Shown piece by piece: positions 1-58,757 of a DNA stretch of 64,000 nucleotides (the stretch's first letter is position 1; each line of letters opens with the position of its first letter). Both the position numbers and the translations under genes were made by a program. The notes beneath the pieces were generated by a model that was not told the origin of the DNA, searched no databases, and was given only the letters and a program-made list of their open reading frames with translations. This DNA is from Candidatus Peregrinibacteria bacterium (GTDB taxonomy: Bacteria; Patescibacteriota; Gracilibacteria; UBA1369; JACRIC01): positions 98,091-162,090 of the forward strand of contig JACPHH010000009.1 of NCBI GenBank assembly GCA_016188705.1. The letters are read 5' to 3'.

Positions 1-279
1 ACCAGGAATAATTTTATAAAAACTAAGGGAGTCTTAAGAAAAACAGATTTTCGTTACGAAATTTGTAAAGTATAGTAGAAAAAATGTTTTTTTTAAGGCT
101 TCTAAGCTGAAAATCTCAGCCTTTTAAGGCTGGGGATGAAGCTGTTTTTGAAGCGAGGCAAGTTTTATTATTGAAAAATTAAATTGATATTTGTCAAGTA
201 TACATTTTTTTCGCTTACTTTCATTTTTTTTGGCTTAAATGTAAAGTAAAGTTAATTTATTTATTTTACCCCTTTTCCT

Positions 280-2619: not shown

Positions 2620-2685
2620 GGAACTTCTGAAAAACGTGCTTACTACTGCAAATTTCGTAATGAAATCACGTTTTTCAGATGTTCC
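2620..2685. repeat. Family-1 palindromic element, short hairpin form (66 bp)
   Basis: ggaacttctgaaaaacgtg ... cacgtttttcagatgttcc: 19-nt inverted ends with 1 mismatch, 12 nt after the thiC stop. Shares its ends and the cttactactgcaa core with copies at 6662, 50352, 56085 and 26468. Confidence 0.85.
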
Positions 2686-3434: not shown

Positions 3435-3490
3435 GAACTGAATCACATATGGAATGGCTTCCATATGTAAAAATTATATGTGAACAGTTC
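3435..3490. repeat. Family-3 mini-element (nested hairpins related to the 26907 TIR)
   Basis: gaactgaatcacatat (3435-3450) pairs with atatgtgaacagttc (3476-3490). Inner 9-bp stem catatggaa/ttccatatg. Right arm gtaaaaattatatgtgaacagttctaag is about 25/29 identical to the right TIR at 27152-27180. Confidence 0.7.
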
Positions 3491-4230: not shown

Positions 4231-4443
4231 TAGTAAAGATATTTTTTTAGAAATTCCCTCAAAGTGATGTACTTATATGCCAGAATTTTAAATAAATCAA
4301 GATAAAATCAGCTCTTATATTAAACGAAAACTACTTTTTTTTAGTCATGAAAAGTGAATCGCGAAAAAAATTATTTTTATCCATGGTTAAAATTCCATTA
4401 TTTCTATTTTTTACGTTGTTACGATTGCAGCAAATAGAGTTAC

Positions 4444-4605
4444 GGACATGCTGAAAAACATCTTAAGAGCTACGATTTTTGTATTTTGGCTACAAATGTT
4501 TCAGCGCTTATCGCCGTATCTAATCTGATACGTCTCTTTCGCGCTTCAACGTTTTCGCGCAAAATACAAAAATTTCGCTTCAATAATCTGTTTTTCAGCA
4601 TGTCC
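4444..4605. repeat. Family-1 palindromic element, divergent full-length variant (162 bp)
   Basis: Perfect 17-nt inverted ends ggacatgctgaaaaaca / tgtttttcagcatgtcc. Central gccgtatctaatctgatacgtc matches the central hairpin of copies 6662 and 50352. Confidence 0.8.
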
Positions 4606-4705
4606 TTACCTTTTTGTTTTTGAAGTAAAGTTGTGGAATTTTTTTTAAAAATGTTTTTTTGAGGTTCCTTGATATACTGAAGTCGCGTTTTTTTGATTGT
4701 TTTTT

Positions 4706-5446: not shown

Positions 5447-5475
5447 CGCTTTTTTTAGAGCTAAATTTTTGGGTT

Positions 5476-5529
5476 ACATTTTTCGCTCGAAATGGTAAAA
5501 TTTCGTTACAAAGTTACGTTTTTAAGAGG
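5476..5529. repeat. Family-1 element, right-half fragment
   Basis: acatttttcgctcgaaatggtaaaatttcgttacaaagttacgtttttaagagg is near-identical to the right half of copies 6662 and 50352. Confidence 0.8.
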
Positions 5530-5634
5530 TTTTTCAGGAGCTGTTTACGTATAATTTTTGCCATAAGTTTTCTGTGATTTCGAATGGTGATTTGTTAGCA
5601 TAAGGATGCGTTAATTTTTATTTTATTATTTTTT

Positions 5635-6639: not shown

Positions 6640-6661
6640 AGCGTTCTTCGGCGGTGTATAA

Positions 6662-6825
6662 AGGAGCCTCTGAAAAACGTACCATCTACTGCAATTTTAC
6701 CATGTCGGCTGCAAAAAGTTCAAAGCTCCTCAACGTATCTTATTTGATACGCTTTCGTCGTTTTTCACATTTTTCGCTCGACATGGTAAAATTTCGTTAC
6801 GAAGTTACGTTTTTCAGAGGCTCCT
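6662..6825. repeat. Family-1 palindromic element, full-length archetype (164 bp, MITE/REP-like)
   Basis: Perfect 20-nt terminal inverted repeat aggagcctctgaaaaacgta / tacgtttttcagaggctcct. Inner 13-nt IR ttttaccatgtcg / cgacatggtaaaa. Central hairpin gtatc-ttattt-gatac. About 95% identical to 50352..50512. Confidence 0.9.
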
Positions 6826-6850
6826 AAAGTAAAAGCGCTTAATCCAAAAA

Positions 6851-9118: not shown

Positions 9119-9721
9119 ATGTTTAGGAAATTTTTGAAAAACACTCTTTCGACTGCGAATGCAAAGATTCGGCTGCGAACGTTTCATTTTTTCTTTCAAT
9201 ATGTGAAATGGATGATTTTTGGAATATTTTTTATTTTCATCGTATTGTTTTTTATTTTTTTTGTTTTTGGTTATTGCCGATACGGAAGTTTCGATGGAAA
9301 TCGCGGTGAAGTCGTTATTCAGACGCCGGTTACGGAATTTCTCATTTCCGCGGAAGTGGCTGATACTTCCGAAAAACGCGCGAAGGGGCTTATGTATCGG
9401 GAAAATTTACCGGATGAAATGGGCATGCTTTTTATTTTTGAAGAAGCGGGTATTCGCAATTTTTGGATGAAAAATACACTTATTCCTCTTGATATAATTT
9501 TTCTTTCGAGTGACAAGAAAATTGTAGGAATTTCCAATAATGTCCAGCCTTGTTCAGATGATTTTTGTCCGTATATTTCATCCGAGGAACCGGCACAATA
9601 TGTATTGGAGGTTCGTGGTGGTTTCGCGGCTGAAAATAGCATTGAAGTCGGCGATACGGTACAATTTACCTATCCTTTCGCGAGAAAATGGCTGTCTTGC
9701 GGTTCCCGTTATTTACGATAA
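9119..9721 (+). CDS. DUF192-family protein with N-terminal transmembrane segment
   Basis: KRAKGLMYRENLPDEMGMLFIF....FWMKNTLIPLDIIFL.....YVLEVRGGF matches the DUF192 pattern. Hydrophobic stretch IFGIFFIFIVLFFIFFVFG near the N-terminus. Confidence 0.8.
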   Translation: MFRKFLKNTLSTANAKIRLRTFHFFFQYVKWMIFGIFFIFIVLFFIFFVFGYCRYGSFDGNRGEVVIQTPVTEFLISAEVADTSEKRAKGLMYRENLPDEMGMLFIFEEAGIRNFWMKNTLIPLDIIFLSSDKKIVGISNNVQPCSDDFCPYISSEEPAQYVLEVRGGFAAENSIEVGDTVQFTYPFARKWLSCGSRYLR

Positions 9722-11192: not shown

Positions 11193-11443
11193 GCGAAAAA
11201 ATGATACTATTAATTAGTTTGTTGTCAAATTTTTTGTTATTATTTTTTTTCAGTCCAATCATCAAAGCATTTTTTTATGAGGCGTTACTTTTTCAGAGGC
11301 TCCTACAATGACATTTTTTTTTAATAAAGTATTTTTTTCTTGCGAGCAGTTGCTTTCTTATATGTCGCTTTTTTTTGAGTTTCGCCGTAAAATGAAATTG
11401 AAATGAGTTTTTGGCAGGTATTTCATCAATAGCATTCAATTGT

Positions 11444-16872: not shown

Positions 16873-17136
16873 GAAAATTGGGTTTTTTATGAATTGAGCT
16901 TGGAAACCTTAAGAAAAGCGTAATTTTGAAAATGAAAATTGAGTCGAAAATCTGTTTTTCAGCATGTTCTTAGATTTATGTGAACGGTTTTTAGAAAGTT
17001 TTAGTGAAAAGTAGGGTGTTTTGTGCAATTTTTGTGATCCATTATTGTGGATTTTTGTTTGACAAATTATATAAAGTTTGTCATCTATATAACCTCAGTT
17101 AAATATTTAGTTAAATATTTTTTTATTTTCACTTAA

Positions 17137-18345: not shown

Positions 18346-18605
18346 GTGATTTTTGAATATTTAAAGAATTTTTTTTCATGGATTTTTGAGGAATGATAAA
18401 AAAAATATGGATTCATGTTTTTTTTCTTGACCGTGGTTTTTTTTTTACATACACTGCAGATGTTATTTGGCATTCATATGAATTATTGTTTTCAAAATTG
18501 TGTTTTTCAGAAATTTTTTAGGTTATTTTTTTTAAAAAGTCTGGACGTTAAGAAGCCTGGAAAGGTAAGGTAGTTGCTGTTTTTCGTTTTGGTATAAAGT
18601 AACTG

Positions 18606-20135: not shown

Positions 20136-20207
20136 ATATATTTTTAGCATCCATACGAAGTTACGTTTTTTAGAGGCTCCTTATATGTATTTTTAATTTT
20201 TTTTACT

Positions 20208-26408: not shown

Positions 26409-26467
26409 AGTGAGTGTGTTAAAAAGGAGAGAAAGGTGAAAAATTCGCGGCAAAAGTTTGCAAATCG

Positions 26468-26492
26468 CAGTAGTAAGCACGTTTTTCAGAGG
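26468..26492. repeat. Family-1 element end fragment
   Basis: gcagtagtaagcacgtttttcagagg is the reverse complement of the left end cctctgaaaaacgtgcttactactgc seen at 2620. Confidence 0.75.
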
Positions 26493-26540
26493 TTTTCATA
26501 CGGTAAAATGTAATTGTGAAAATTTTAAAAAGTGAGATAG

Positions 26541-26906: not shown

Positions 26907-27178
26907 TAGGCAGTGTTCACATAAAATTTTTACAGATGGAAGAGATGTATTTTGTTCAGTTCAAGGAACGACGACGAGAGTGTACCCAAAGGTACATCGA
27001 GAAGGAGTGACGCAGAAATGGACAAAATACGTCTCTTCCCTTCGGGTTGGACGGAAAGATGTCCGTCTTCTTTGTTGCTCGTCGCTTATGGAGCGCTGGC
27101 TCCACCACGCTCCTCGCGCCTTGAATCCAGACATCTTTCCGTCCAACCATCGTAAAAATTTTATGTGAACACTGCCTA
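26907..27178. mobile_element. Family-3 non-autonomous element (272 bp, 27-bp perfect TIRs, TA-flanked) with nested internal helices
   Basis: The TIR taggcagtgttcacataaaatttttac (26907-33) is the exact reverse complement of 27152-78. Internal pairings: gatggaagagatgtattttgt with acaaaatacgtctcttccc, and ggttggacggaaagatgtc with gacatctttccgtccaacc. Read as ggcagtg...cactgcc, both ends are flanked by TA. Lies 32 nt downstream of tRNA-Arg. Confidence 0.75.
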
Positions 27179-34975: not shown

Positions 34976-36031
34976 ATGATTCACGCGCAAAAATTACATA
35001 ATGAATTTGTGAGACTTGGCGGATTGAGGCTTAATTTGAAAAATAAAATGCTCGCGATGCTCCCTAAAATCCATGAAAGCGGAATTTGGAAGAAATATGC
35101 CGATTCCATTGAGGAATATGCCGGAAAATATGGAGATATCGCAAAAACAACAGTTATCAAAAGGCTCAGACTTGAAGAAAATTTGAAAGATAAGCCATGT
35201 TTGAAAGCAGCGATTGAAAAAGCGGGCGTACATAAAGTCGCGATGCTGGCAAAAATTGCCACGCCTGAAACGGATTCAAGAATGGCAGAAAATATTGTAA
35301 GCATGAGCAAAATGGCGGTACAAAGTTTGTCGAAAGAGTTCAGGTCTGGACAAGTTGAAAAAAATGGCAATCAGCAGTTTCATTTTTCCAATTTTGGATT
35401 CGCGGATCAAGGTCAGTCACAACCTTGCCGAGCCGTTTTTATGACGAAAAAGATAGAACTTGATGAAAATGCAACTTTTCTTTTCTTGAAATTAAAATCA
35501 AAACTTGGCAAAAATTTGAGCGACAAAGAATTTTTAAAACTCATTTTGGAAGAACGAAGTGTCACCGGTGATACTTTGAACCGACAGATCAAACAGTCTG
35601 ATGAAAAAGATTGTTTCCTCGCGGCAGACAATGTAAGAGTGGCAGACAATGTAAGAGCAGCAGACAATGTAAAGGCGGCAAATAATGTAAAAGCGGCAGG
35701 CACGATAAAAGCAAAAGAAATTGCTTCTCGCTACATTCCCGTCAGCAAAAAACGCGAAGTCGTTGCTCAAACAAATGGAAAATGTATCTACCCGAATTGC
35801 CATTCGCCATATGAAGTTTTGCACCATGTTTACCGCTACAGTGAAAGCAAAACCAACGACTCCATCATCCCGTTTTGCAAGATTCACCATGAATTCGCGC
35901 ACCATAACTTAATACGTAATGAAACGCTCAAAACAGACGCGTGGCGAATATCTCTTCGGAAAGACCCCGTGGCAGAAATTTCACAGGCGGATTTTTTATA
36001 CCGAAAATATAAACAAAAAATAGTGGTCTAA
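34976..36031 (+). CDS. HNH endonuclease-domain protein (DUF222-like architecture)
   Basis: C-terminal CIYPNC....EVLHHVYRYSES.......FCKIHHEFAHHN (HNH/His-Me finger). Internal 18-bp tandem repeats at 35621-35698 encode AADNVR/VADNVR/AADNVK/AANNVK. Confidence 0.8.
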   Translation: MIHAQKLHNEFVRLGGLRLNLKNKMLAMLPKIHESGIWKKYADSIEEYAGKYGDIAKTTVIKRLRLEENLKDKPCLKAAIEKAGVHKVAMLAKIATPETDSRMAENIVSMSKMAVQSLSKEFRSGQVEKNGNQQFHFSNFGFADQGQSQPCRAVFMTKKIELDENATFLFLKLKSKLGKNLSDKEFLKLILEERSVTGDTLNRQIKQSDEKDCFLAADNVRVADNVRAADNVKAANNVKAAGTIKAKEIASRYIPVSKKREVVAQTNGKCIYPNCHSPYEVLHHVYRYSESKTNDSIIPFCKIHHEFAHHNLIRNETLKTDAWRISLRKDPVAEISQADFLYRKYKQKIVV

Positions 36032-37046: not shown

Positions 37047-37691
37047 ATGTATACTTTTGATGTAAGAAACGTTATCAATCAGGCGACAGGTTATAAGGAT
37101 ACACATACAGTCGATCTTCCGCTTGCCTTTCCCGAGGTCAGAAATTTTACCGAGGTCAAGGATTTTCCTCAGACCGAGGATTTTACTGAAATCAAGAATT
37201 TTTCCGAAACTAAAGATTTTTCTCAGACCGACGATTTTTCTAAGACAAAAGAAATTTTCGCGGTTTCGCCCATGCATCTGGAAGTCAGCTTTCGCAAACT
37301 TCCGGATGGCATTAACGCGGAGGTGGAAAAACTTCAGGTTTCACTGCAATTTCCTTGCAGCCGCTGTATAACACCCTATGTGCTTTCTCTCGATATCAAG
37401 CCTTTTGAGGCGTGTTTTTACATTAACGCGCCACAAGAAATACTTGATGAGGCTGGAATCTTTTTTATCGATAAAAAACGGCTTACAGTAGACCTTTCTG
37501 ATATGCTGCGCCAGGAAATCCTCTTGCATTTTCCTTTGGTTCCGTTATGCTCTAAGAGTTGCAAGGGTTTATGTGTCACGTGTGGTAAAAATCGAAATCA
37601 TACAAAGTGCCGTTGTACTCATAAATCTGTAACAAGTTCAGATTCTCAGCAACCATTTCAGAATATTAAAAATCTTATAAGTGGATATTAG
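37047..37691 (+). CDS. YceD/DUF177 family protein, with hexapeptide tandem-repeat insertion
   Basis: C-terminal CSKSCKGLCVTCGKNRNHTKCRC and DLSDMLRQEILLHFP are typical of DUF177. Conserved position immediately upstream of rpmF. Seven 18-bp repeats at 37134-37259. Confidence 0.85.
   Translation: MYTFDVRNVINQATGYKDTHTVDLPLAFPEVRNFTEVKDFPQTEDFTEIKNFSETKDFSQTDDFSKTKEIFAVSPMHLEVSFRKLPDGINAEVEKLQVSLQFPCSRCITPYVLSLDIKPFEACFYINAPQEILDEAGIFFIDKKRLTVDLSDMLRQEILLHFPLVPLCSKSCKGLCVTCGKNRNHTKCRCTHKSVTSSDSQQPFQNIKNLISGY
37134..37259 (+). repeat. 7 x 18-bp in-frame tandem repeat inside yceD-like gene
   Basis: Units: gaggtcagaaattttacc / gaggtcaaggattttcct / cagaccgaggattttact / gaaatcaagaatttttcc / gaaactaaagatttttct / cagaccgacgatttttct / aagacaaaagaaattttc. 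They encode (E/Q/K)(V/T/I)(R/K/E/D)(N/D/E)F(T/P/S). Confidence 0.9.
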
Positions 37692-38117: not shown

Positions 38118-38528
38118 ATGGCAAGCAACAGACATCTTTCTCGAATTCTTGTGATGCAGACCCTCTTTGCCAACGAATTTCGGAATGGAAAATCCACGGA
38201 CATTTTGGAATATCTCATTAAGGACAGAAGTTCGGAAATTGTCGAACCTGATTTTTCGATGAATCTTTTAAAAGGTGTTTTTAAAAATGAAAAAAAAATT
38301 CGCGCCTGCATTGAAAGCCACGCGCCGGATTGGCCTTTTGAAAAGATCGCTCCGGTTGATCGCGCTTGTCTTGAAATTGGCGTTTATGAGCTTGTCATCG
38401 AAAAAAAAGTGCCGCCACTGGTTGCTTTGAACGAAGCCATTGAGATTGCCAAACAGTACGGAGGAGAAAATTCCGCTAAATTTGTCAATGGCGTGCTTAG
38501 TTCCCTTTATAAAGAAAAAACACAATGA
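38118..38528 (+). CDS. nusB: Transcription antitermination factor NusB
   Basis: [44 protein letters not shown]. Confidence 0.9.
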
Positions 38529-38538
38529 ATCATATTTT

Positions 38539-39267
38539 ATGAAAAATTCCACCACCCCTCCAGTGAATCGAACTTCCATTGACCGCTTTTCACCGCTTGA
38601 AAAAAAGCTTGGTGTTATTTTCAAAAATAGAAATATTCTGACAATGGCTTTTATTCATAAATCCTATATGAATGAGGTAAAAAATAAAAGTCTTGAAAAT
38701 AATGAACGCCTCGAATTTCTTGGCGACGCGGTGCTCGAACTCGTAGTCACGGAATATCTCTATTTGAACTACGATAGCCCGGAAGGAGTTTTGACTAATT
38801 GGCGATCCGCTCTGGTAAAAGGGAAAAATCTCGCTGAAATCGCGTCGAAACTGAACTTAGGAGCCTACCTTTCATTGAGCAAAGGAGAACGCGAATCAGG
38901 CGGCGAGCATAAAAGTTATATTTTGGCGAATACATTTGAAGCGCTTATTGGAGCTTTATATCTCGATCAGGGTTTAGATGTCGCGCGGCATTTTATCAAT
39001 CACTTCGTTATAAAATATCTTGATGAAATTATTGAAAAAGGTCTTTATATTGATTCAAAGTCGCGTTTTCAGGAAATTTCGCAGGAAACATTCGGTATCA
39101 CGCCGGAATACCGTTTACTTTCCGAAGAAGGGCCGGATCATGACAAACATTTTACCATGGGGGCTTTCCTTGGTGAAAAAATGATGGGAGAAGGAAAAGG
39201 AACTAGCAAACAAAATGCCGAACAAGTCGCTGCCGAAAACGTTCTCAAACAACATGGCTGGAAATAA
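38539..39267 (+). CDS. rnc: Ribonuclease III
   Basis: FIHKSY, NERLEFLGDAVLELVV (signature), ANTFEALIGALYLD, and C-terminal dsRBD (GPDHDK.F....GEGKGTSKQNAEQ.AA). ATG 38539 inside track ORF 38440..39267. Confidence 0.93.
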   Translation: MKNSTTPPVNRTSIDRFSPLEKKLGVIFKNRNILTMAFIHKSYMNEVKNKSLENNERLEFLGDAVLELVVTEYLYLNYDSPEGVLTNWRSALVKGKNLAEIASKLNLGAYLSLSKGERESGGEHKSYILANTFEALIGALYLDQGLDVARHFINHFVIKYLDEIIEKGLYIDSKSRFQEISQETFGITPEYRLLSEEGPDHDKHFTMGAFLGEKMMGEGKGTSKQNAEQVAAENVLKQHGWK

Positions 39268-39319
39268 TAAAATTGTATACGCCCGCCGCTTTTCTTGAAA
39301 CAATGGGGCGGGAATTCAT

Positions 39320-39358
39320 TAGTCAGTGTTCACATAAAATTTTTGCGAACACTGACTA
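39320..39358. repeat. Family-3 minimal element: TIR-only hairpin between convergent genes
   Basis: tagtcagtgttc-acataaaatttttgc-gaacactgacta forms a perfect 12-bp stem. The left part is 24/25 identical to the TIR at 26907. TA-flanked. May also act as a bidirectional terminator. Confidence 0.75.
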
Positions 39359-42456: not shown

Positions 42457-42536
42457 GGATTATACGCACATTACTTTGAAAAAAAGCACATATCGCTGGC
42501 AGGCAAGAGTTCGTCGCTCGGATACTCGGCCGGATC
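42457..42536 (+). repeat. Family-2 interspersed repeat, copy a
   Basis: ggattatacgcacattactttgaaaaaaagcacatatcgctggcaggcaagagttcgtcgctcggatactcggccggatc shares long blocks with 53743..53873 and 58657..58708. Confidence 0.8.
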
Positions 42537-42913
42537 AAAAAGGGCGAAAATTCACTAAAAATGCTATCGGCTACGCATTTTTTAACGTTCATTTTCGCCT
42601 CTTTTTGAAAACCGGCCTGCGTAACTCGCTCCGAACTCCCGCCTCCCAGCATATGTTTTTAAAGTAATCCGCGTATGATCCGTATTATTTTCACATGATT
42701 ACAAGGCGCATTTTGATCAATGGAATTTCCGTTGTCGCGAGTATGAATATTTATGGAACTTTAAAAAAAACGAATTTCGGAAACGAAAATGCAAAAATTC
42801 GAGCAAAAATTCTGAATAATGACAAAGGCGTATCAGATGAAAATACGATTGATGAACGCGAAAATATAACCTCGAATGCGCATTTGAAAGAACGTTTTTT
42901 CGAGGTCTCAAAA

Positions 42914-43636
42914 ATGCGCGGCACTCAAAGCGTGCCCGTAGTCATTCTCCATGGCTGGGGCAGCAATCGCGCAAGTTGGCTTCCTGTCATGAAAATTCTT
43001 GATTCGCAAGGATTTGAGGTTATAGCTCCCGATCTGCCGGGTTTTGGAGAGAGCGATTTTCCGAAAAAGCCATGGAATGTTCAAAATTACGTCGACTGCG
43101 TCACAGCTCTCCTTGAAACATTGAATTTAAAAAAGGTTATTCTTTTAGGACATTCATTCGGCGGCCGCATTTGCATAAAATTCTCTCATCAATATCCAGA
43201 AAAAGTTCAAAAACTCATTCTCGTCGCGTCAGCCGGCATCAAGCACCCTCCAACACCGAAAATGAAAATACTCTCTTTGGTTGCTCGCTTCGGGAAAAAA
43301 ATTGTCGCCATTCCTGTTTTTGGACTTTTTGCATCGACCGCGAGACGCGCTCTTTACCGTCTGGCAGGTTCGCGCGACTATCTTGTTTCAGGTCCAAATC
43401 GCGAAACCTTTCTGAAAGTCATTGAGGAAGACCTTCGTCCCCATCTTCCGAAAATCTTGGCGCAGACCCTTCTCATCTGGGGTGATAAAGACTTAGTGAC
43501 TCCTTTGGAGGATGCCAAAATTATGAAGTCGGCCATCCCCGATTCCGAACTTGTTATTTTTCCAGGTATTCATCACAGCATTCAGCGTGAAGCCCCTGTA
43601 AAACTTGCGGAAACGGTAATATCTTTTCTTAAATAA
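42914..43636 (+). CDS. Alpha/beta-fold hydrolase
   Basis: VVILHGWGS, DLPGFGESD, nucleophile elbow GHSFGG, WGDKD, and C-terminal GIHHS (His). Probable start is ATG 42914. The upstream part of track ORF 42695..43636 contains repeat-derived sequence (TNFGNEN). Confidence 0.8.
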   Translation: MRGTQSVPVVILHGWGSNRASWLPVMKILDSQGFEVIAPDLPGFGESDFPKKPWNVQNYVDCVTALLETLNLKKVILLGHSFGGRICIKFSHQYPEKVQKLILVASAGIKHPPTPKMKILSLVARFGKKIVAIPVFGLFASTARRALYRLAGSRDYLVSGPNRETFLKVIEEDLRPHLPKILAQTLLIWGDKDLVTPLEDAKIMKSAIPDSELVIFPGIHHSIQREAPVKLAETVISFLK

Positions 43637-43638
43637 GC

Positions 43639-45690
43639 ATGATAGATTTTTTATTTTTTTCCATTTTTTTTCTTTGGGTCATTAATATTGCCGCGCAGAT
43701 TTTGAAACTGACCTATATCATCCAGCTTAAAGAATATCGGTGGGATCGTATTTTGGATTTTCTGAAATCGCCTGAAGGCCGCAGATCTATTTTTACTCCT
43801 TTTTTCTTTGTGTATCTTTTGATCATTCTTCTTGTTTTTTTCATTATTGTATTTTCATGGACTTCTTTGATTTCTCCATTTGTTTTTCTTACGAATGTTT
43901 TCCTTTTTTACTCTGCTGGATTTTTTATTATTCTCAAAAAACTTCGCGATCATTCTCTTCTTCGGCCGCGTTGGACAAAAAAATCTTTTCTTTTCGTTTC
44001 GCTTTCATTTTTAATGATGCTTTTCGTTCCTCTTATTTTCATTCTTGTCTTTATTTTTGCTCAAATGAATTCAGACTTTTTTATTTATAGTTTTTACTTT
44101 ATTAGTCGTCTGCTTTTTCTTGATACGTTTCTTATGATTCGTAATCTTTTCGATCTTTTGTATCGCGGGTGGATTCTCTCTCTCATGAGTCCTTTTTTGT
44201 TCATTTATAATCTTTTTGTACCATTTTTTGTTCTTTTTTGGTTTCTCATACTCCAAGCTGGGACGATTTTTATAAAAAAATATATGTACTGGCGAGCCGC
44301 GAAAAAAATTACATCAATGAGTCATTTAACCGTCATAGGCATTACGGGAAGCTACGGAAAAAGCACTACCAAGGAATTTTTGACGACCATTCTTTCAAAA
44401 AAATTTCAGGTTCTTGCCACTCCAGCAAACGTGAATAGTGAAATCGGTGTTGCTCAAATTATTTTAAAAAAACTTACTCCGACTCATGATATTTTCATCG
44501 TTGAAATGGGAGCGTATAAAAAAGGCGAAATCGCGCTTATTTCCAAAATGACACAACCGAAAATCGGCATTATGACGGCAATCAATGAGCAGCATATTTC
44601 TCTTTTCGGATCCATTGAAAACATAAAACAGGCGAAATATGAGCTCATGGAATCGCTGCCTGATGACGGTTTGGCTCTTTTCAACGGGGATAATGATTAT
44701 TGCGTCGAACTTTATAAAAAAACGAAAAAACCGAAACTTCTGTATTCAGTACAAAAAACTGACGATGAAAGGGTCGATAAAGATTTTTCTCATGGGAAAA
44801 ATGTTGATAGCGCGAAAAAACAATCTTCCGATATCTCTGCCACGAATGTCAAAGGCACGCAAGATGGAATTCGATGCACTCTTCATAAAAAACCGCTAAA
44901 AAATCTGGTTTCTTTACAAAATTGTAGTAGTAAGGGAACCTCTGAAAAACACCATTTTGGAAATGAAAATGAACAACAGGATTTCTTTGTTCCTGTGCCT
45001 GGAATCCATAATGTTTCGAATCTTCTGGCGGCGGCGGCTACGGCTTCGTATTTTGGAATGAGTCTCGCGGAAATTTCCGAAGCCGCCAAGCATATTCAGC
45101 CTCGAGAAAAAACTTTAAAACTCATGGCTGGCATCCGAAACACGCTCATTATTGATGACAGTTACAGCGCCAATCCTGATGGCGTCATGGCGGCGTTGGA
45201 ATATCTTGATTCGCTTGCGGCTCCGAAAAAAATCATGATCATGAGAGGGATGATCGAGCTTGGAGAAAAATCAGCTGAAGCTCATAAACGTGTTGGGAAA
45301 AAAGCCGCGGAAGTATGCGATCTTGTTATTTTTACGACTACGGATTTTTTCTCGGATTTTTTGGCTGGCGCCATGGAGATCATCAATCGCTCTGAAATAA
45401 GTTACTCTCATGTTAGTCACCCAGCAGTCAGTCATTCCAAAATCAGTCACCCTGAAAATCCTTATTCTGAAAACGGTAAGGGAACTTCTGAAAAACGCAA
45501 TTTCGGAAACGAAAATGTTGGATTTTTCAATGATGCCGCATTTTTCAATCATAATGAGAAAGTATTGCAAATCAGCTCAGCGGAGGAGATTATGGAAAAA
45601 GTGAATCCGTATGTTTCCGATGGAAATATTTTTCTTCTTGAAAATCGTATTCCATCTCAAATCATTCTCGCGCTCAAAATGTTACACTAG
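43639..45690 (+). CDS. murF: MurF-like Mur ligase with about 225-aa polytopic membrane N-terminus and two repeat-derived insertions
   Basis: GITGSYGKSTTKE (P-loop), ANVNSEIGVAQIIL, VEMGA, NGDNDY, PGIHNVSNLLAA, IIDDSYSANPD. The N-terminal 225 aa is almost entirely hydrophobic. Insertions fall at about 44900-44993 and about 45400-45565. Confidence 0.85.
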   Translation: MIDFLFFSIFFLWVINIAAQILKLTYIIQLKEYRWDRILDFLKSPEGRRSIFTPFFFVYLLIILLVFFIIVFSWTSLISPFVFLTNVFLFYSAGFFIILKKLRDHSLLRPRWTKKSFLFVSLSFLMMLFVPLIFILVFIFAQMNSDFFIYSFYFISRLLFLDTFLMIRNLFDLLYRGWILSLMSPFLFIYNLFVPFFVLFWFLILQAGTIFIKKYMYWRAAKKITSMSHLTVIGITGSYGKSTTKEFLTTILSKKFQVLATPANVNSEIGVAQIILKKLTPTHDIFIVEMGAYKKGEIALISKMTQPKIGIMTAINEQHISLFGSIENIKQAKYELMESLPDDGLALFNGDNDYCVELYKKTKKPKLLYSVQKTDDERVDKDFSHGKNVDSAKKQSSDISATNVKGTQDGIRCTLHKKPLKNLVSLQNCSSKGTSEKHHFGNENEQQDFFVPVPGIHNVSNLLAAAATASYFGMSLAEISEAAKHIQPREKTLKLMAGIRNTLIIDDSYSANPDGVMAALEYLDSLAAPKKIMIMRGMIELGEKSAEAHKRVGKKAAEVCDLVIFTTTDFFSDFLAGAMEIINRSEISYSHVSHPAVSHSKISHPENPYSENGKGTSEKRNFGNENVGFFNDAAFFNHNEKVLQISSAEEIMEKVNPYVSDGNIFLLENRIPSQIILALKMLH

Positions 45691-45703
45691 ACAGTGTTAA
45701 ACC

Positions 45704-45758
45704 TTTTCGCTTAAAATTTGCAGATTTCGTGACGAAGTTACGTTTTTCAGATAAGTTC
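45704..45758. repeat. Family-1 element, right-half fragment
   Basis: ttttcgcttaaaatttgcagatttcgtgacgaagttacgtttttcagataagttc, located just after the murF stop. Confidence 0.75.
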
Positions 45759-50320: not shown

Positions 50321-50351
50321 AGGAACCTTCAAAAAATGGTGAAAAGTTAGA

Positions 50352-50512
50352 GAACCTCTGAAAAACGTACCATCTACTGCAATTTTACCATGTCGGCTGC
50401 AAAATGTTCAAAGCTCCTCAACGTATCTTATCTGATACGCCTTCGTCGCTTTTCACATTTTTCGCTCAACATGGTAAAATTTCGTTACGAAGTTACGTTT
50501 TTCAGAGGTTCC
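50352..50512. repeat. Family-1 palindromic element, full-length copy
   Basis: gaacctctgaaaaacgta...tacgtttttcagaggttc. About 95% identical to 6662..6825, with a compensatory G:C to A:T change in the terminal stem. Confidence 0.9.
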
Positions 50513-50580
50513 TTAGATGACTTTGGATTGCTTTTTTCCCAGCGAAATTTATAGTATGAAAAGACGATTGAATCATTCTC

Positions 50581-53742: not shown

Positions 53743-53873
53743 CGGATCATACGCACATTACTTTGAATAAGTCAGAATCTCGGCACGCGGAAGCTCGTCC
53801 GGATCATACGTTTTTTCCTTTGAAAAAAAATACATATCGCTGGAAGGAGGGAGCTCGTCGCTCGGATACTCGG
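53743..53873 (+). repeat. Family-2 interspersed repeat, copy b (two tandem units)
   Basis: cggatcatacgcacattactttgaa...gaagctcgtccggatcatacg, followed by tttgaaaaaaaatacatatcgctggaaggagggagctcgtcgctcggatactcgg. Units are bounded by ggatcatacg. Confidence 0.8.
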
Positions 53874-56084: not shown

Positions 56085-56232
56085 GGAAACCCTGATAAAT
56101 ATGCTTACTACTGCAAATTGCAAAATTTGGCTGCAAACGCTTCAGACCTCCTCGCCGTATCTTCTTCTGATACGCCTTCGTCGGTCGCTCAGCGTTTTCG
56201 CTCAAATTTTGCAATTTTCGTAATGAAAAATC
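56085..56232. repeat. Family-1 element, divergent full-length copy overlapping the 5-prime end of the S-layer gene ORF
   Basis: ggaaaccctgataaatatgcttactactgcaaattgcaaaatttggctgcaaacgcttcagacctcctcgccgtatcttcttctgatacgccttcgtcggtcgc...ttttcgtaatgaaaaatc is collinear with copies 6662 and 2620. Confidence 0.75.
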
Positions 56233-58649
56233 ATATGAAAGCATATTTTAAAAAATATATTGGGACAGTCCTTATAGTTGCCTTTCTAGGGACAACTGGG
56301 ACATCATATCTGTTTGACCAAACAGTCATGGCGGATTCTCAGGTGGGACCGACGGCTGTTTTGCAGGTTTCTCCAACGGGAGGTTCGATACAAACAACCT
56401 TTACATTCGACGCGTCACTTTCAACCAATGCACGCGGTTCCAGGGGGAATCTCGATTACAGAATAAATTTTGAATACTCATCTTCCTCCTTTACCACATG
56501 GAACAGCGTAAGCCAATTCGACTACACCTATACCCAATCCGGCAATAAAAAGGTCATTCTCGACGTTCGGGACAGGGAAACAGGTTTAACCGACCGTGCT
56601 ATTCTCAGTCTCAATGTCGGCGAAAAACTGTCATGGAATGCTGAAATTGCCGTTTCACCCCTCAAAGGCGATAGCAATACCTCATTTCGATTTCAAATGC
56701 AGATGACGAGTGATCTTGCGACTCCTGTCACGGACTATGAAGTTCGTTGGGATTTTGACGGAGATAACGCTTGGGATACGCGTTTTTCAAATCAACATAC
56801 CGCGTATCATCTCTTTTCAAAAACCGGCTACTTTACGCCGAAAGCCGAAGCGCGCGATCCGAGTGGGAATACCGTCCTTGTTTTCGGACTCGGTGAAGAT
56901 AATACAGAATTGGGCGAAAAGCGTGAAGATATGATTCTCGTGGCTCGATCAGGCGCGCCGGATGCCAATATAAGCGTCTATCCTGGTGTCGGAATTGCCA
57001 ATTCCACCATATTTTACCTTGATGGTTCTGATTCTGTCGACCTTGAAGACCTTTTCAAAATTCAGTATCGTTTTGATTTTCAAAATGATGGCATTTTCGA
57101 TACGGATTTTTCATCAAATGCCAAAGCTTCGTATATTTACCCGCTTCCAGGTACGCAAACTGCGGTTGTGCAGGTAAAAGACAAAGATGGGCACATGGAT
57201 GAGGCTTACATTATGGTGGAAGTGCGTGAGCATGACACACCGCCGCAAGCGGATTTTACCATTCGAGGCGATGGAAAACTCGCGGAACAGCCTTATTCGA
57301 AAAATGGAACAGCGATTGGAACCACTTCCACTGTTTTTTCTTTCAGCGCCCAGAGTGTCCGTGACAATGAAGATTCCTCTACGAATTTACAAGTACGATT
57401 CGATTTCGACGGCGATACAATTTTTGATACCGCATTTTCCACCAATAAACGAGCCGAATACCGTTATTTAAAAATCGGTAATTTTACCGCTATGATGCAG
57501 GTACTCGACAGCGCCGGCAGTATCACTTCGGTGTCAAAAGAAGTTACCATTGTTGCCAATACTGATCCTGAAGCGAAACTTATCATTACGCCGTTAGCAG
57601 GCACGCCCGCAACGGTTTTTACCTTTGATCCGAGAAATTCGCGAGACGCCCAGTATCGAAATTCCTCGCTTCGTGTACGCTATGACTTCAATTCCGACGG
57701 TATTTACGATACGAAATTTGAAAGCATCAAAAGCAGAAGGGAGACATTTAAAAATCCTGGCAAAAAATCGATTACGCTCCAAGTAATGGATCCCGAGGGA
57801 AAAATCGCTACCGCCACGCAGCAAGTTGAAATTTATTCCAACCAGACTCCGGTAGCTCAATTTGATATTTCACCTCGAGAAGGGACTTTTTCCACGAACT
57901 TTGTTTTTGACGCTTCAAAATCTCTTGATCCTGAGCCGAGTTCGGGTAAGCTTCAATATCGTTTTGATTTCGATTACACAGGTCCTAATGACATTGAATA
58001 CGATTCCAATTTCAGCAGTAATCCCATCCGAAAAATTCAGTATAATCAAGTCAATAAAATCGGAAAAATTCAAGTTCGAGTTGAAGTGAAAGATGCTGAT
58101 GGAAAAACCACTACCGCCATTTCAGAAATTTCGCTGCATTGGTCTTCTCAATACATTGAATACTTTAGACGCAAAGGCGTGCTTCGAGGATATGAAAAGG
58201 GAGAGATGAAACCCGATCAGCCTATTACTCGAGCTGAATTTACCAAAGTCATTTTAGAAACTCTGGATATTCCTTTAAATGGCGTAAAGTTTGAACAGAG
58301 ATTTACCGATGTACGAAAAACGGATTGGTTTTCAAAATATGTTTTAAAAGCCGAATCGCTCGGCATTATTCAAGGCTACGACAATCAAACTTTTCGTCCG
58401 AATGAGCCGGTAACGCGAGCCGAAGCGCTGGCTATTATTTTTCGAGCTTTTGAAATTCCGTCACAATCATCGAAAAAAGTATTTCCCGATGTCGCGATGG
58501 GACAGTGGTTTACGAGTTATGTATCCAGCGCCTATGAATCAGGTCTTATTAAAGGATACACTGATGGTTCCTTTCGACCTCATGGACTTATCACTCGCGG
58601 AGAGGCTTCCAAAATCAGCTATCTCGCCAGTCAAAAATACGATTTTTAG
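56223..58649 (+). CDS. S-layer candidate: signal/TM, about seven PKD-like repeats, three C-terminal SLH domains
   Basis: Repeating roughly 90-aa units (TTFTFDAS.S......L.YR.DF..DG..D), then HWSSQYIEYFRRKGVLRGY, FTDVRKTDWFSKYVLKAESLGIIQGYDNQTFRPNEPVTRAEA and FPDVAMGQWFTSYVSSAYESGLIKGYTDGSFRP. Probable start ATG 56223 or 56235; track ORF start 56043 reads through the repeat. Confidence 0.85.
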   Translation: MKNHMKAYFKKYIGTVLIVAFLGTTGTSYLFDQTVMADSQVGPTAVLQVSPTGGSIQTTFTFDASLSTNARGSRGNLDYRINFEYSSSSFTTWNSVSQFDYTYTQSGNKKVILDVRDRETGLTDRAILSLNVGEKLSWNAEIAVSPLKGDSNTSFRFQMQMTSDLATPVTDYEVRWDFDGDNAWDTRFSNQHTAYHLFSKTGYFTPKAEARDPSGNTVLVFGLGEDNTELGEKREDMILVARSGAPDANISVYPGVGIANSTIFYLDGSDSVDLEDLFKIQYRFDFQNDGIFDTDFSSNAKASYIYPLPGTQTAVVQVKDKDGHMDEAYIMVEVREHDTPPQADFTIRGDGKLAEQPYSKNGTAIGTTSTVFSFSAQSVRDNEDSSTNLQVRFDFDGDTIFDTAFSTNKRAEYRYLKIGNFTAMMQVLDSAGSITSVSKEVTIVANTDPEAKLIITPLAGTPATVFTFDPRNSRDAQYRNSSLRVRYDFNSDGIYDTKFESIKSRRETFKNPGKKSITLQVMDPEGKIATATQQVEIYSNQTPVAQFDISPREGTFSTNFVFDASKSLDPEPSSGKLQYRFDFDYTGPNDIEYDSNFSSNPIRKIQYNQVNKIGKIQVRVEVKDADGKTTTAISEISLHWSSQYIEYFRRKGVLRGYEKGEMKPDQPITRAEFTKVILETLDIPLNGVKFEQRFTDVRKTDWFSKYVLKAESLGIIQGYDNQTFRPNEPVTRAEALAIIFRAFEIPSQSSKKVFPDVAMGQWFTSYVSSAYESGLIKGYTDGSFRPHGLITRGEASKISYLASQKYDF

Positions 58650-58656
58650 AGACTCC

Positions 58657-58708
58657 TTAGAAAAAAAGTACATATCGCTGGCAGGCGGGAGCTCGTCGCA
58701 GATCATGC
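58657..58708 (+). repeat. Family-2 interspersed repeat, copy c
   Basis: ttagaaaaaaagtacatatcgctggcaggcgggagctcgtcgcagatcatgc. Confidence 0.75.
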
Positions 58709-58757
58709 AATTTTTGGTTTTTTTCTTGCGAATGAAAAAATAATATGGTAAAATTTT

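Follow-up and report, generated by a model that had tools for sequence, protein, structure and literature searches.

The ~163-bp palindromic repeat dispersed through the window (the whole 64-kb stretch of Peregrinibacteria DNA analysed here) is very probably a MITE-type transposon: a non-coding, polymorphic element that creates 4-bp target-site duplications, would be moved in trans by an IS5-like DDE transposase and keeps its two arms complementary. As such it belongs to a well-known class and is distinctive only in its co-changing arms and in those copies that lie in frame within genes. The genomes of CPR bacteria are very small and are as a rule considered poor in mobile DNA; in the literature we searched, no MITE was described from this group.

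Full copies span 161-164 bp, and variants are 66-75 bp or ~221 bp long. In typical copies, none of the frames examined is free of stop codons, and no transposase is encoded. The element is an imperfect palindrome over its whole length and folds as one long hairpin. Its terminal inverted repeats (TIRs) of ~19 nt start with GGANNNNCTGAAAAAC, follow the layout GGA-NNNN-CTGAAAAAC... and, in copies from the window, pair without mismatch; inside them lie an inner repeat (ttttaccatgtcg/cgacatggtaaaa) and then a central gtatc-N6-gatac hairpin. This nested architecture, proposed in a preliminary description of the same DNA, can be read directly in the sequence and was reproduced by folding: predicted RNA folds reach -67.9 kcal/mol on one strand (z = -12.4) and -74.7 kcal/mol on the other, with z about -12, and the ssDNA fold -40.3 kcal/mol (z = -10.7). 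The palindrome arms co-vary. Asymmetric blocks of invariant sequence (CTACTGCAA, GGCTGCAAA, TTTTCGCTC and ATTTCGTNAC) interrupt them and are probably protein-binding sites.

Searching with nhmmer (E values) and a covariance model (CM; bit scores), we find the family at ~18 loci in the window, where it occupies 1452 bp (2.3%) as five full-length copies and, as decay products of the element, three short hairpin forms and ~10 pieces that are solo arms or end stubs. The motif CTGAAAAACR alone occurs 15 times in the window, against 1.0 expected. Family sequence is present at every coordinate of the preliminary description, whose count of at least 11 intergenic copies or fragments is exceeded, though three of the pieces turn out to lie in frame inside genes; new are those at 9125-9186, 18482-18517, 58631-58660, 44935-44975 and 45481-45520.

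The 162-bp copy at 6663..6824 (+ strand; 172 CM bits) carries the TIRs GGAGCCTCTGAAAAACGTA / TACGTTTTTCAGAGGCTCC, sits between the convergent thiL and orf187 and is bounded by the duplication TAAA at 6659-6662 and 6825-6828; the coordinates first given for it, 6662..6825, take in one duplication base per side. It is 96% identical to the copy at 50351..50512 (+; 170 bits), in keeping with the ~95% previously estimated (there for 6662..6825 and 50352..50512). This second copy has the duplication TTAG on its two sides (50347-50350 and 50513-50516) and precedes ftsA by 68 nt; in L020, a locus of a related MAG, the corresponding position is without the element. Both divergent full-length copies also stand. 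One, at 4444..4605 (+; 144 bits), has the terminal block CATG at both ends and the duplication TTAC at 4440-4443 and 4606-4609, in the divergent spacer upstream of thiE; the other, at 56085..56248 (+; 109 bits), is decayed at its right end, and its right arm holds the likely start codon (ATG 56223/56235) of a downstream secreted protein. To these four, all of them recognized from the outset, an overlooked fifth has to be added: an old, decayed full-length copy on the minus strand at 42756..42909 (nhmmer E 4e-12; CM E 3e-8).

Among the shorter pieces, the 66-bp hairpin at 2620..2685 (+; 60 bits), already described as such, is an internally deleted form in which the left arm is joined to the right arm; it is flanked by TTAA/TCAA and lies 11 nt after thiC. 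Two sites previously listed as end fragments are indeed family sequence but only parts of decayed short forms, 41-67 belonging to one of 75 bp at 28..102 (-; CM 28 bits, E 7e-5) and 16951-16973 to one of 66 bp at 16904..16969 (+), whose right end CTGTTTTTCAGCATGTTC is followed by TTAG. Solo right arms are found between thiE and thiL (5476..5532, +; nhmmer E 6e-11) and 6 nt past the stop codon of murF (45697..45757, +; E 7e-8), the latter missing in the syntenic spacer of locus L136. Solo left arms follow the transketolase N-terminal gene (9125..9186, +; E 1e-6) and directly precede dapB (26436..26496, -; E 4e-9). Right-end stubs, each on the plus strand, lie at 11284..11303 (..CTTTTTCAGAGGCTCC), at 18482..18517 (..TGTTTTTCAGAAATTTT, then TTAG), at 20153..20185 between the aspartate kinase and asd genes, and at 58631..58660 (CGATTTTTAGAGACTCC, then TTAG). 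That almost every copy sits immediately 3' of a gene, as had been stated, is true of many (6-31 nt after stop codons), but others occupy convergent, divergent and co-directional spacers, and three pieces are inside coding sequences.

How did the element come to occupy these sites? Perfect 4-bp direct repeats flank 24 of 46 unique insertions, whereas 10,000 permutations of the flanks average 2.4 and reach 9 at most, and since flank matches at lengths 3 and 5 number 1 and 0, the duplication is exactly 4 bp. Non-palindromic duplications (TAAA, TTAC, CTTG, TTGA, CCTA, CTCA and TGTA) are among them. The target consensus T-W-A-A is AT-rich, with Py-T-A-Pu-like tetranucleotides, and the targets include TTAG, CTAA, TTAA, CTTA, CTTT and CTTG/CAAG; in the copy lists, the target tetranucleotide shows no guide-like correlation with the variable terminal block. 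A perfect duplication is lacking at about half of the insertions, which for some can be put down to recombinant or chimeric flanks and to decay. Filled and empty versions of one site coexist within a single MAG: locus L005 reads ...GGACGGTCAA[163-bp element]TCAATGCGG... (TCAA-element-TCAA), whereas L010 and L039, with flanks 98% identical to those of L005, read ...GGACGGTCAATGCGG... with a single TCAA. Presence/absence polymorphism also separates the window from L020, both ahead of ftsA and behind the next gene, and from L136 in the murF-degT spacer, and L037 and L081 have reciprocal empty sites. The preliminary description had listed a MITE as one option and had held that classic target-site duplications and empty sites, together with a cognate transposase, would make the repeat an ordinary one; the duplications and a filled/empty site pair are now in hand and support that option, while the cognate transposase was not found.

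Beyond the window, Peregrinibacteria, Peribacteria and Gracilibacteria MAGs hold 34 of 43 genome matches; a single MAG, CAZTVN01, contributes 25 loci, and further copies occur in metagenomes, whose loci brought the full-length set to 60. Many matches lie at contig ends, so the family helps explain the fragmentation of these MAGs. Between genomes, copies are 88-92% identical and genes only ~69-76% (DNA). Judged from these sequences, ~90% identity of copies between lineages whose genes are ~70% identical indicates active or recent transposition within Peregrinibacteria, and probably horizontal spread of the element among them. A blastn search of plasmid and phage collections gave no match, and two arm patterns run against IMG/VR viral contigs yielded zero matches, and two chance coding matches, with no phage vector evident.

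The co-changing arms deserve closer scrutiny. Both-sided changes in the terminal stem, previously noted for a few copies, proved general: of the 56 copies with both ends, 55 have matching 4-nt blocks at positions 4-7 of the two ends (one being the reverse complement of the other), regardless of which of nine block types (ACCT, GCCT, CCCT, GGTG, CATG, CCCA, GGCA, GGTA or ACTT) is present, and in one comparison of copies 92% identical elsewhere the terminal block differs at 8/8 positions. Both-sided changes affect 34 of 53 consensus pairs, and paired cells make up 96.2% (shuffles: 82%; slid controls: 36-46%), which gives the suspected covariation statistical support. The further expectation that such support would mark a selected RNA was not borne out. 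Wobble is not favoured (14 G·T, 38 A·C and 32 other mismatches among 1768 cells), the two strands fold equally, and orientation to genes is unbiased in the wider set, with 20 co-oriented and 12 anti-oriented elements in 32 co-directional contexts. For these reasons, the covariation supports a fold-back constraint and not specifically a selected RNA. The 9/9 co-directional contexts within the window had hinted at a strand-specific RNA, a bias that is gone in the wider set. For RNA-motif discovery there is a caution here, in that a palindromic transposon can yield strong, significant covariation.

Which enzyme might move the element? A domain search of the ~40 ORFs in the window detected no transposase domain, in agreement with the initial reading, and Pfam likewise found no transposase among ORFs inside or beside TIR-end pairs and beside solo ends in the related loci. 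A parent-IS search, pairing TIR-like ends 240-5000 bp apart with matching blocks or duplications, was negative; clustering of 573 locus ORFs disclosed no multi-copy gene; and no cognate autonomous IS with the same TIRs was found in the window or in the 0.94 Mb of loci. Nor did tblastn with E. coli IS5 InsH, an approximate query of limited sensitivity, find a relative in these 0.94 Mb; a lone match in L123 (E = 0.36) is broken by stop codons and was dismissed as chance. IS5 itself duplicates Py-T-A-Pu tetranucleotides, with CTAG, CTAA, TTAG, CAAG, CTTA and CTTT among its targets (PMC5493358). The element, too, duplicates 4 bp of Py-T-A-Pu type, its T-W-A-A consensus being more AT-rich than the classical CTAG, and its end GGAACCTCTGAAAAA matches the end of the IS5-family ISNme1, GAGACCTTTGCAAAA, at 11/15 positions, which is a resemblance only (PMC4596501). 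The 4-bp duplication at Py-T-A-Pu-like sites and the GGA termini point to an IS5-type transposase as the mover: a DDE enzyme with a 4-bp staggered cut and a taste for GGA/GAG termini that would act in trans and would either not be encoded nearby or no longer be present. A transposase that reads each end separately leaves the both-end identity of a freely varying 4-nt block unexplained.

Arm complementarity is likely to be kept at the DNA level. Arm-to-arm conversion in the fold-back, by quasi-palindrome template switching, could do so, or the fold-back form could be needed for mobility. A stronger version, to which we give limited credence, holds that the element is structure-dependent: arm pairing, including that of the variable terminal 4-nt block, would be required in a single-stranded fold-back, with the invariant asymmetric loops as recognition sites, and the fold-back would be either an intermediate, made of DNA, in an unusual transposition pathway or an RNA processed by RNase III and of advantage to the host. 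If true, this would make the element a new mechanistic variant of bacterial MITE that also supplies new protein loops in reduced CPR genomes.

Several other explanations have to be weighed against a MITE. A transcribed copy would form a hairpin of ~-68 kcal/mol, a would-be substrate of the RNase III encoded in the window (38440-39267), and RNase III or RNase E is known to process Correia and ERIC elements (PMC10969869). Together with the strong covariation around invariant internal loops, the very stable fold of either strand and the many copies close behind stop codons, this fits a selected cis-acting RNA, that is, an mRNA hairpin serving as RNase III site, 3'-end stabiliser or gene insulator, possibly as a role secondary to a MITE. 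We nevertheless consider it rather unlikely: nearly all pairs are Watson-Crick, with no wobble enrichment in the plus orientation, the orientation to genes is unbiased, copies are also found in divergent promoter spacers and within ORFs, there is no U-tract terminator, and target duplications denote spread by transposition, not descent of a regulatory site. That the element could be an independent structured small-RNA gene in many copies, an option of the preliminary description, may be suggested by its covarying stems, conserved loops and internal promoter-like motif, yet is highly improbable given target duplications and truncated copies, promoter-like sites that point outward and not across the element, and the lack of both a terminator and an Rfam family. 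Gathering and permissive Rfam searches returned nothing relevant; the only above-threshold matches in the window are two tRNAs, and the best match on the element, a plant miRNA-precursor hairpin model, scores 27 bits where the gathering threshold is 140. Nor is the element an intrinsic terminator, with a G+C-rich stem followed by a U tract: no terminator-like site was found at its ends, and the single site flagged was the weak central hairpin within copy 4444.

The window's subfamily may carry outward-facing sigma-70-like promoters as a side effect on the host, which raises the question of whether the element is a mobile promoter cassette driving flanking genes in the manner of Correia elements. 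The motif TTCACA-17-TAAAAT with a TG extension (10/12 matches; 6764-6792) faces outward, as does a 9-of-12 site in the other arm; the solo right arm at 5476..5532 has a similar promoter-like GTTACA-17-TAAAAT (5473-5501) facing thiL; and the same site is kept in the subfamily of the window, CAZTVN and JACRIC. Against this, the -10 hexamer is part of a covarying stem and lacks conservation from one subfamily to another, only ~9/34 copies have a site at that position, the other matches being 9-of-12 and elsewhere in AT-rich sequence, a regional scan gave 8 sites where 6.1 are expected, and many copies come after genes or face convergent ones, so we rate such a primary role as improbable. A REP/BIME/REPIN-type element, in which a RAYT (HUH) transposase recognises palindromic units in their DNA-hairpin form and mobilises them, would likewise be palindromic, mostly intergenic and of high copy number, with the compensatory changes typical of hairpin-recognised elements. 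HUH/RAYT elements make no target duplications, however, and here duplications of 4 bp accompany a 163-bp unit with true TIRs instead of a 20-40-nt palindrome or doublet, and neither the window nor the loci yielded a RAYT or Y1 transposase domain; the REP/BIME-like terminator first envisaged thus has very little in its favour. An invertible DNA switch, in which site-specific recombination keeps inverted repeats identical, would account for perfectly identical ends whatever their sequence, as a crossover site requires, and ~160 bp with internal promoter-like motifs would suit it. We regard it as extremely unlikely, for none of 14 pairs of loci sampled repeatedly in different assemblies shows opposite orientation, no recombinase gene lies nearby, the palindromy runs through the whole element, and there are target duplications. 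The resemblance of GGAGGTG/CACCTCC ends to a Shine-Dalgarno/anti-Shine-Dalgarno pair is confined to one subfamily, with no suitably spaced start codon, and was set aside as coincidence.

The MITE interpretation invites comparison with IS5-family-derived MITEs such as ATR of Neisseria meningitidis, which has ISNme1 ends, and BrickBuilt and MITEPgRS of Porphyromonas gingivalis. They share with the element a small, AT-rich, non-coding body with TIRs and 4-bp duplication at Py-T-A-Pu-like sites, as made by IS5, and its GGA/GAG termini resemble theirs (11/15 terminal bases as in the ISNme1 end). Unlike them, the element comes from a CPR host and without a found parent IS that has the same ends, forms a covarying hairpin over its whole length, and has a free 4-nt block, identical at both ends, within its TIR. 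Correia elements (CREE/NEMIS) of Neisseria are likewise ~100-160 bp long, with long TIRs, many intergenic copies, no known cognate transposase and outward promoter-like motifs, and transcripts of both would form RNase III-type hairpins, a function that is only inferred for the element. The resemblance is a functional one only: the sequences are unrelated, Correia elements have 26-nt TIRs, duplicate TA and live in Neisseria, whereas the element duplicates 4 bp and is paired along its entire length. ERIC, RUP, BOX and REP/REPIN are, like the element, dispersed intergenic repeats with stable stem-loops; REP/REPIN differ as short palindromes of 20-40-nt units that are moved by a RAYT partner without duplications, and ERIC, RUP and BOX in sequence, duplication (TA or none) and host.

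Finally, three pieces of the family, a full copy and two arm fragments, lie in frame within genes. The copy at 42756..42909 (-) is stop-free over ~51 codons within an alpha/beta-hydrolase gene (42695-43636), where it would encode GTLKKTNFGNENAK; the N-terminus of this hydrolase is conserved. Both fragments lie inside murF on the minus strand. The one at 44935..44975, which includes a TIR (GGAACCTCTGAAAAAC...), is part of a 75-nt in-frame insert (44893-44967; encoding ..KGTSEKHHFGNE) that is missing from the closest homologue, and the other, at 45481..45520, belongs to an older in-frame insert at ~45397-45552 (..GKGTSEKRNFGNEN..). The predicted insert-derived peptide of MurF is KGTSEKHHFGNENEQQ. 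Such behaviour recalls the Rickettsia palindromic elements (RPE), ~150-bp palindromic repeats of a reduced genome that also have some copies in frame in housekeeping genes, as tolerated loops. The likeness is one of behaviour, in-frame insertion into conserved genes without loss of frame, and not of family membership, as sequence and host are unrelated and the element is mostly intergenic, is in typical copies not open in the frame used, and has clear TIRs and target duplications. The murF and hydrolase copies are a second, independent case of Rickettsia-type palindromic elements in proteins. It appears that the host tolerates a few copies as in-frame surface loops: in the predicted structure of MurF, each insert forms a loop of low pLDDT that is flanked by confidently predicted secondary-structure elements.

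What kind of element is this palindrome of ~163 bp? Among the structural features of a MITE that can be tested, the family has every one. The two best copies in the window (6663-6824 and 50351-50512) are 96% identical across 162 nt, and both have the nested layout put forward in the preliminary description: terminal inverted repeats (TIRs) of 19 nt, an inner pair of 13 nt, and GTATC-N6-GATAC as the central hairpin. The window contains 15 matches to the decamer CTGAAAAACR, where 1.0 would be expected. A census with a profile HMM and a covariance model (34 distinct copies, filters off) recovered the full-length copies listed earlier (4444-4605, 6663-6824, 50351-50512, and 56085-56248) and added an overlooked fifth, a decayed copy on the minus strand at 42756-42909. 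The remainder consists of three short forms of the hairpin (28-102, 2620-2685, and 16904-16969), solo arms at six places (5476-5532, 9125-9186, 26436-26496, 45697-45757, 44935-44975, and 45481-45520), and four end stubs (11284-11303, 18482-18517, 20153-20185, and 58631-58660). In total, the family occupies 1452 bp (2.3%) of the window. Covariance-model scores are far higher on the plus strand (172 bits) than on the minus strand (72 bits), and the element is therefore a palindrome with a defined polarity.

Evidence for transposition comes from the flanks. Both ends could be located in 56 copies, which correspond to 46 unique insertions. Directly outside the TIRs, 24 of these 46 have a perfect direct repeat of 4 bp, and at least three of the four positions match in 34; permuting left against right flanks (10,000 trials) gave a mean of 2.4 perfect matches and a maximum of 9, and alternative lengths of 3 bp and 5 bp yielded one match and none, respectively. 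In the window, the copies at 6663, 50351, and 4444 are flanked by TAAA, TTAG, and TTAC. Many duplications (TAAA, TTAC, CTTG, TTGA, CCTA, CTCA, TGTA) are non-palindromic and hence true duplications rather than a palindromic target. In CAZTVN01, a related MAG rich in copies, a filled site at locus L005 (GGACGGTCAA-[element]-TCAATGCGG) has its empty counterpart (GGACGGTCAATGCGG) in paralogous, 98% identical sequences at L010 and L039. The sequence hit in L005 is itself another repeat of ~100 nt (L005:2867-3170, L010:145-244, L039:105-204; CCAATCGCGTTATCAGAAG...GCCCCGCCCGCTTTTTAT), which provides this empty-site control and, in L010 and L039, adjoins element copies. Orthologous comparisons show presence and absence in both directions: around ftsA (window versus L020), in the murF-degT spacer (window versus L136), and reciprocally between L037 and L081. 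Two pairs of copies (L108:1815-1978 and L070:1553-1716; L078:1039-1259 and L084:5927-6147) have one flank exactly in common and the other different, which reflects recombination between copies or chimeric assembly at the repeat and explains some of the imperfect duplications.

Which enzyme could have moved the element? The flank consensus at insertions is T-(T/A)-(A/T)-(A/G). A 4-bp duplication combined with Ga/g ends is the signature of the IS5 group in the ISfinder family table, a lead rather than a test. IS5 duplicates a Py-T-A-Pu tetranucleotide, and most of its recorded targets (CTAG, CTAA, TTAG, CAAG, CTTA, CTTT; PMC5493358) are also found among those of the element, whose end, GGAACCTCTGAAAAA, agrees at 11 of 15 positions with that of the IS5-family ISNme1, GAGACCTTTGCAAAA (PMC4596501). 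We infer that an IS5-type DDE enzyme moved the element in trans. No transposase turned up among ~40 window ORFs (Pfam and NCBIfam) or among ORFs of related loci that neighbour solo ends or lie between two paired ones; tblastn of E. coli InsH against 0.94 Mb and a search for multi-copy ORFs likewise gave none, and no parent IS was found.

That pairing between the arms is maintained, as the preliminary description had claimed, is borne out by the wider set of copies. In an RNAalifold structure of 34 distinct copies, four helices comprise 53 pairs, 34 of which have changed on both sides; under this fixed structure, pairing holds in 96.2% of cells versus 82.2% in shuffles, the observed value being reached in 0 of 500. 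Sliding the 3′ partner by 1-3 columns lowers the paired cells to 36-46% and the covariation score from 0.38 to at most 0.08. In 55 of 56 copies, the two ends carry an equal terminal 4-nt block, of which nine types occur; between window copy 50351 and a CAZTVN copy (L025), 8 of 8 block positions differ, with the remainder 91.6% identical. By column entropy, invariant blocks alternate with hypervariable paired blocks, and several invariant blocks are asymmetric between the arms (left, CTACTGCAA and GGCTGCAAA; right, TTTTCGCTC and ATTTCGTNAC).

This covariation does not point to RNA in particular. Among 1768 paired cells, 1684 are Watson-Crick, 14 G·T, 38 A·C, and 32 other mismatches, with one-sided (wobble) changes nearly absent. 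The two strands are equally able to fold as RNA (-67.9 and -74.7 kcal/mol), and the single-stranded DNA folds too (-40.3 kcal/mol, z = -10.7). The element is mixed in orientation, and no U-tract terminator was found at it. The simplest reading is a fold-back constraint at the level of DNA. Quasi-palindromes are known to mutate by template switching, and arm-to-arm conversion by this route could keep the arms complementary; alternatively, a fold-back form required for mobility might do so. Selection would preserve the asymmetric invariant blocks, probably as protein-binding sites. An equal, freely varying block at both ends is not predicted by a transposase that reads each end separately.

Other readings of the repeat lack their defining features: this applies to REP/REPIN sequences, to terminators, which would require a U tract, to invertons, and to an Rfam RNA, an Rfam search having returned nothing similar. 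Copies lie in 20 convergent, 13 divergent, and 32 co-directional spacers, and in the co-directional ones 20 run with the genes and 12 against them; the strand bias suggested by the window (9 of 9) is gone in this wider set. In its workings the element resembles Correia elements, IS5-derived MITEs, and, partly, Rickettsia palindromic elements (RPEs), yet it belongs by sequence to no named family; the class itself is already known. Notable in this MITE are its CPR host, a hairpin that covaries over its full length and has a terminal block free to vary, and the toleration of in-frame copies by an essential gene.

This gene encodes MurF (43639-45690; PDB and Pfam matches), in which the peptide KGTSEK(H/R)(H/N)FGNEN occurs twice, encoded by arm fragments with TIR. 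The first in-frame insert (75 nt, 44893-44967; ..KGTSEKHHFGNE..) is missing from every aligned homologue, including the closest (P0002 in L136, 61-70% identity), and the second (~45397-45552; ..GKGTSEKRNFGNEN..) is common to L136 in decayed form and missing from more distant homologues. AlphaFold models both (residues 424-442 and 588-638) as low-confidence coils (pLDDT < 50) flanked by confidently placed strands and helices. Likewise, the decayed full-length copy at 42756-42909 runs in frame for ~51 codons without a stop, for which we estimate a chance of roughly 2% in such AT-rich sequence, inside an alpha/beta-hydrolase gene (42695-43636). It sits between the N-terminal 20 residues, whose codons and upstream DNA are conserved with L136, and the hydrolase core; the syntenic gene of L136 is without it. 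This in-frame behaviour matches that described for RPEs.

How widespread is the family? A left-arm pattern scan (one genome per species) gave 43 loci, 34 of them in Candidatus Peregrinibacteria, Peribacteria, or Gracilibacteria MAGs; CAZTVN01 alone supplies 25, many at contig ends. The remaining nine are chance matches where the rest of the element is missing. The right-arm pattern matched 90 metagenome stretches, and 60 full-length copies were recovered in all. Despite gene DNA identities of only ~69-76% between the window and its closest sampled relatives (protein identity 68% for FtsA, 80% for Thi4), their element copies are 88-92% identical. Nothing resembling the element was found in plasmid and phage collections or IMG/VR, nor did we find such repeats described in the literature on CPR or Peregrinibacteria. 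A 221-bp subfamily in metagenome loci (L045:7603-7823, L062, L078, L080, L084:5927-6147, L108:1118-1339, L110, L118) carries a 57-nt internal insert with two extra hairpins, GTTTGGAT..ATCCAAAC and GCCCCGC-ATTC-GCGGGGC, and L099 holds a 206-bp variant.

Effects on the host are conceivable. Transcripts reading through the element would be perfectly paired over a long stretch, as they are for Correia elements (PMC10969869), and the RNase III gene in the window (38440-39267) is relevant for this reason. The right arm of the window subfamily contains an outward sigma-70-like site (TTCACA-17-TAAAAT with TG extension, 6764-6792, plus strand) and the left arm a weaker one (6723-6694, minus strand); in a solo right arm (5473-5501, plus strand), such a site is directed at thiL. 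The -10 box sits in a covarying stem and is kept in place in only ~9 of 34 copies. The probable start codon of a secreted LRR/NEAT-like protein (MKNHMKAYFKK..., 56223-56237) lies inside the decayed right arm of 56085-56248.

The window holds other repeats as well. A second palindromic family of ~272 bp, unrelated to the element, adjoins a tRNA gene at 26907-27178 and has perfect 27-nt terminal inverted repeats (TAGGCAGTGTTCACATAAAATTTTTAC), with related pieces at 3458-3486 and 39319-39348; it also occurs outside the window (L013:4623-4797 and L029:4918-5017), including in the CAZTVN MAG. A third dispersed intergenic repeat of ~73 nt (42457-42529, 53801-53873, and 58639-58711; 60-82% identity) follows the pattern ..TTTGAAAAAAA.CACATATCGCTGG.AGG..GAGCTCGTCGC.., and 18-bp tandem repeats of 5-6 units within two ORFs (35603-35710 and 37128-37253) encode hexapeptide repeats.
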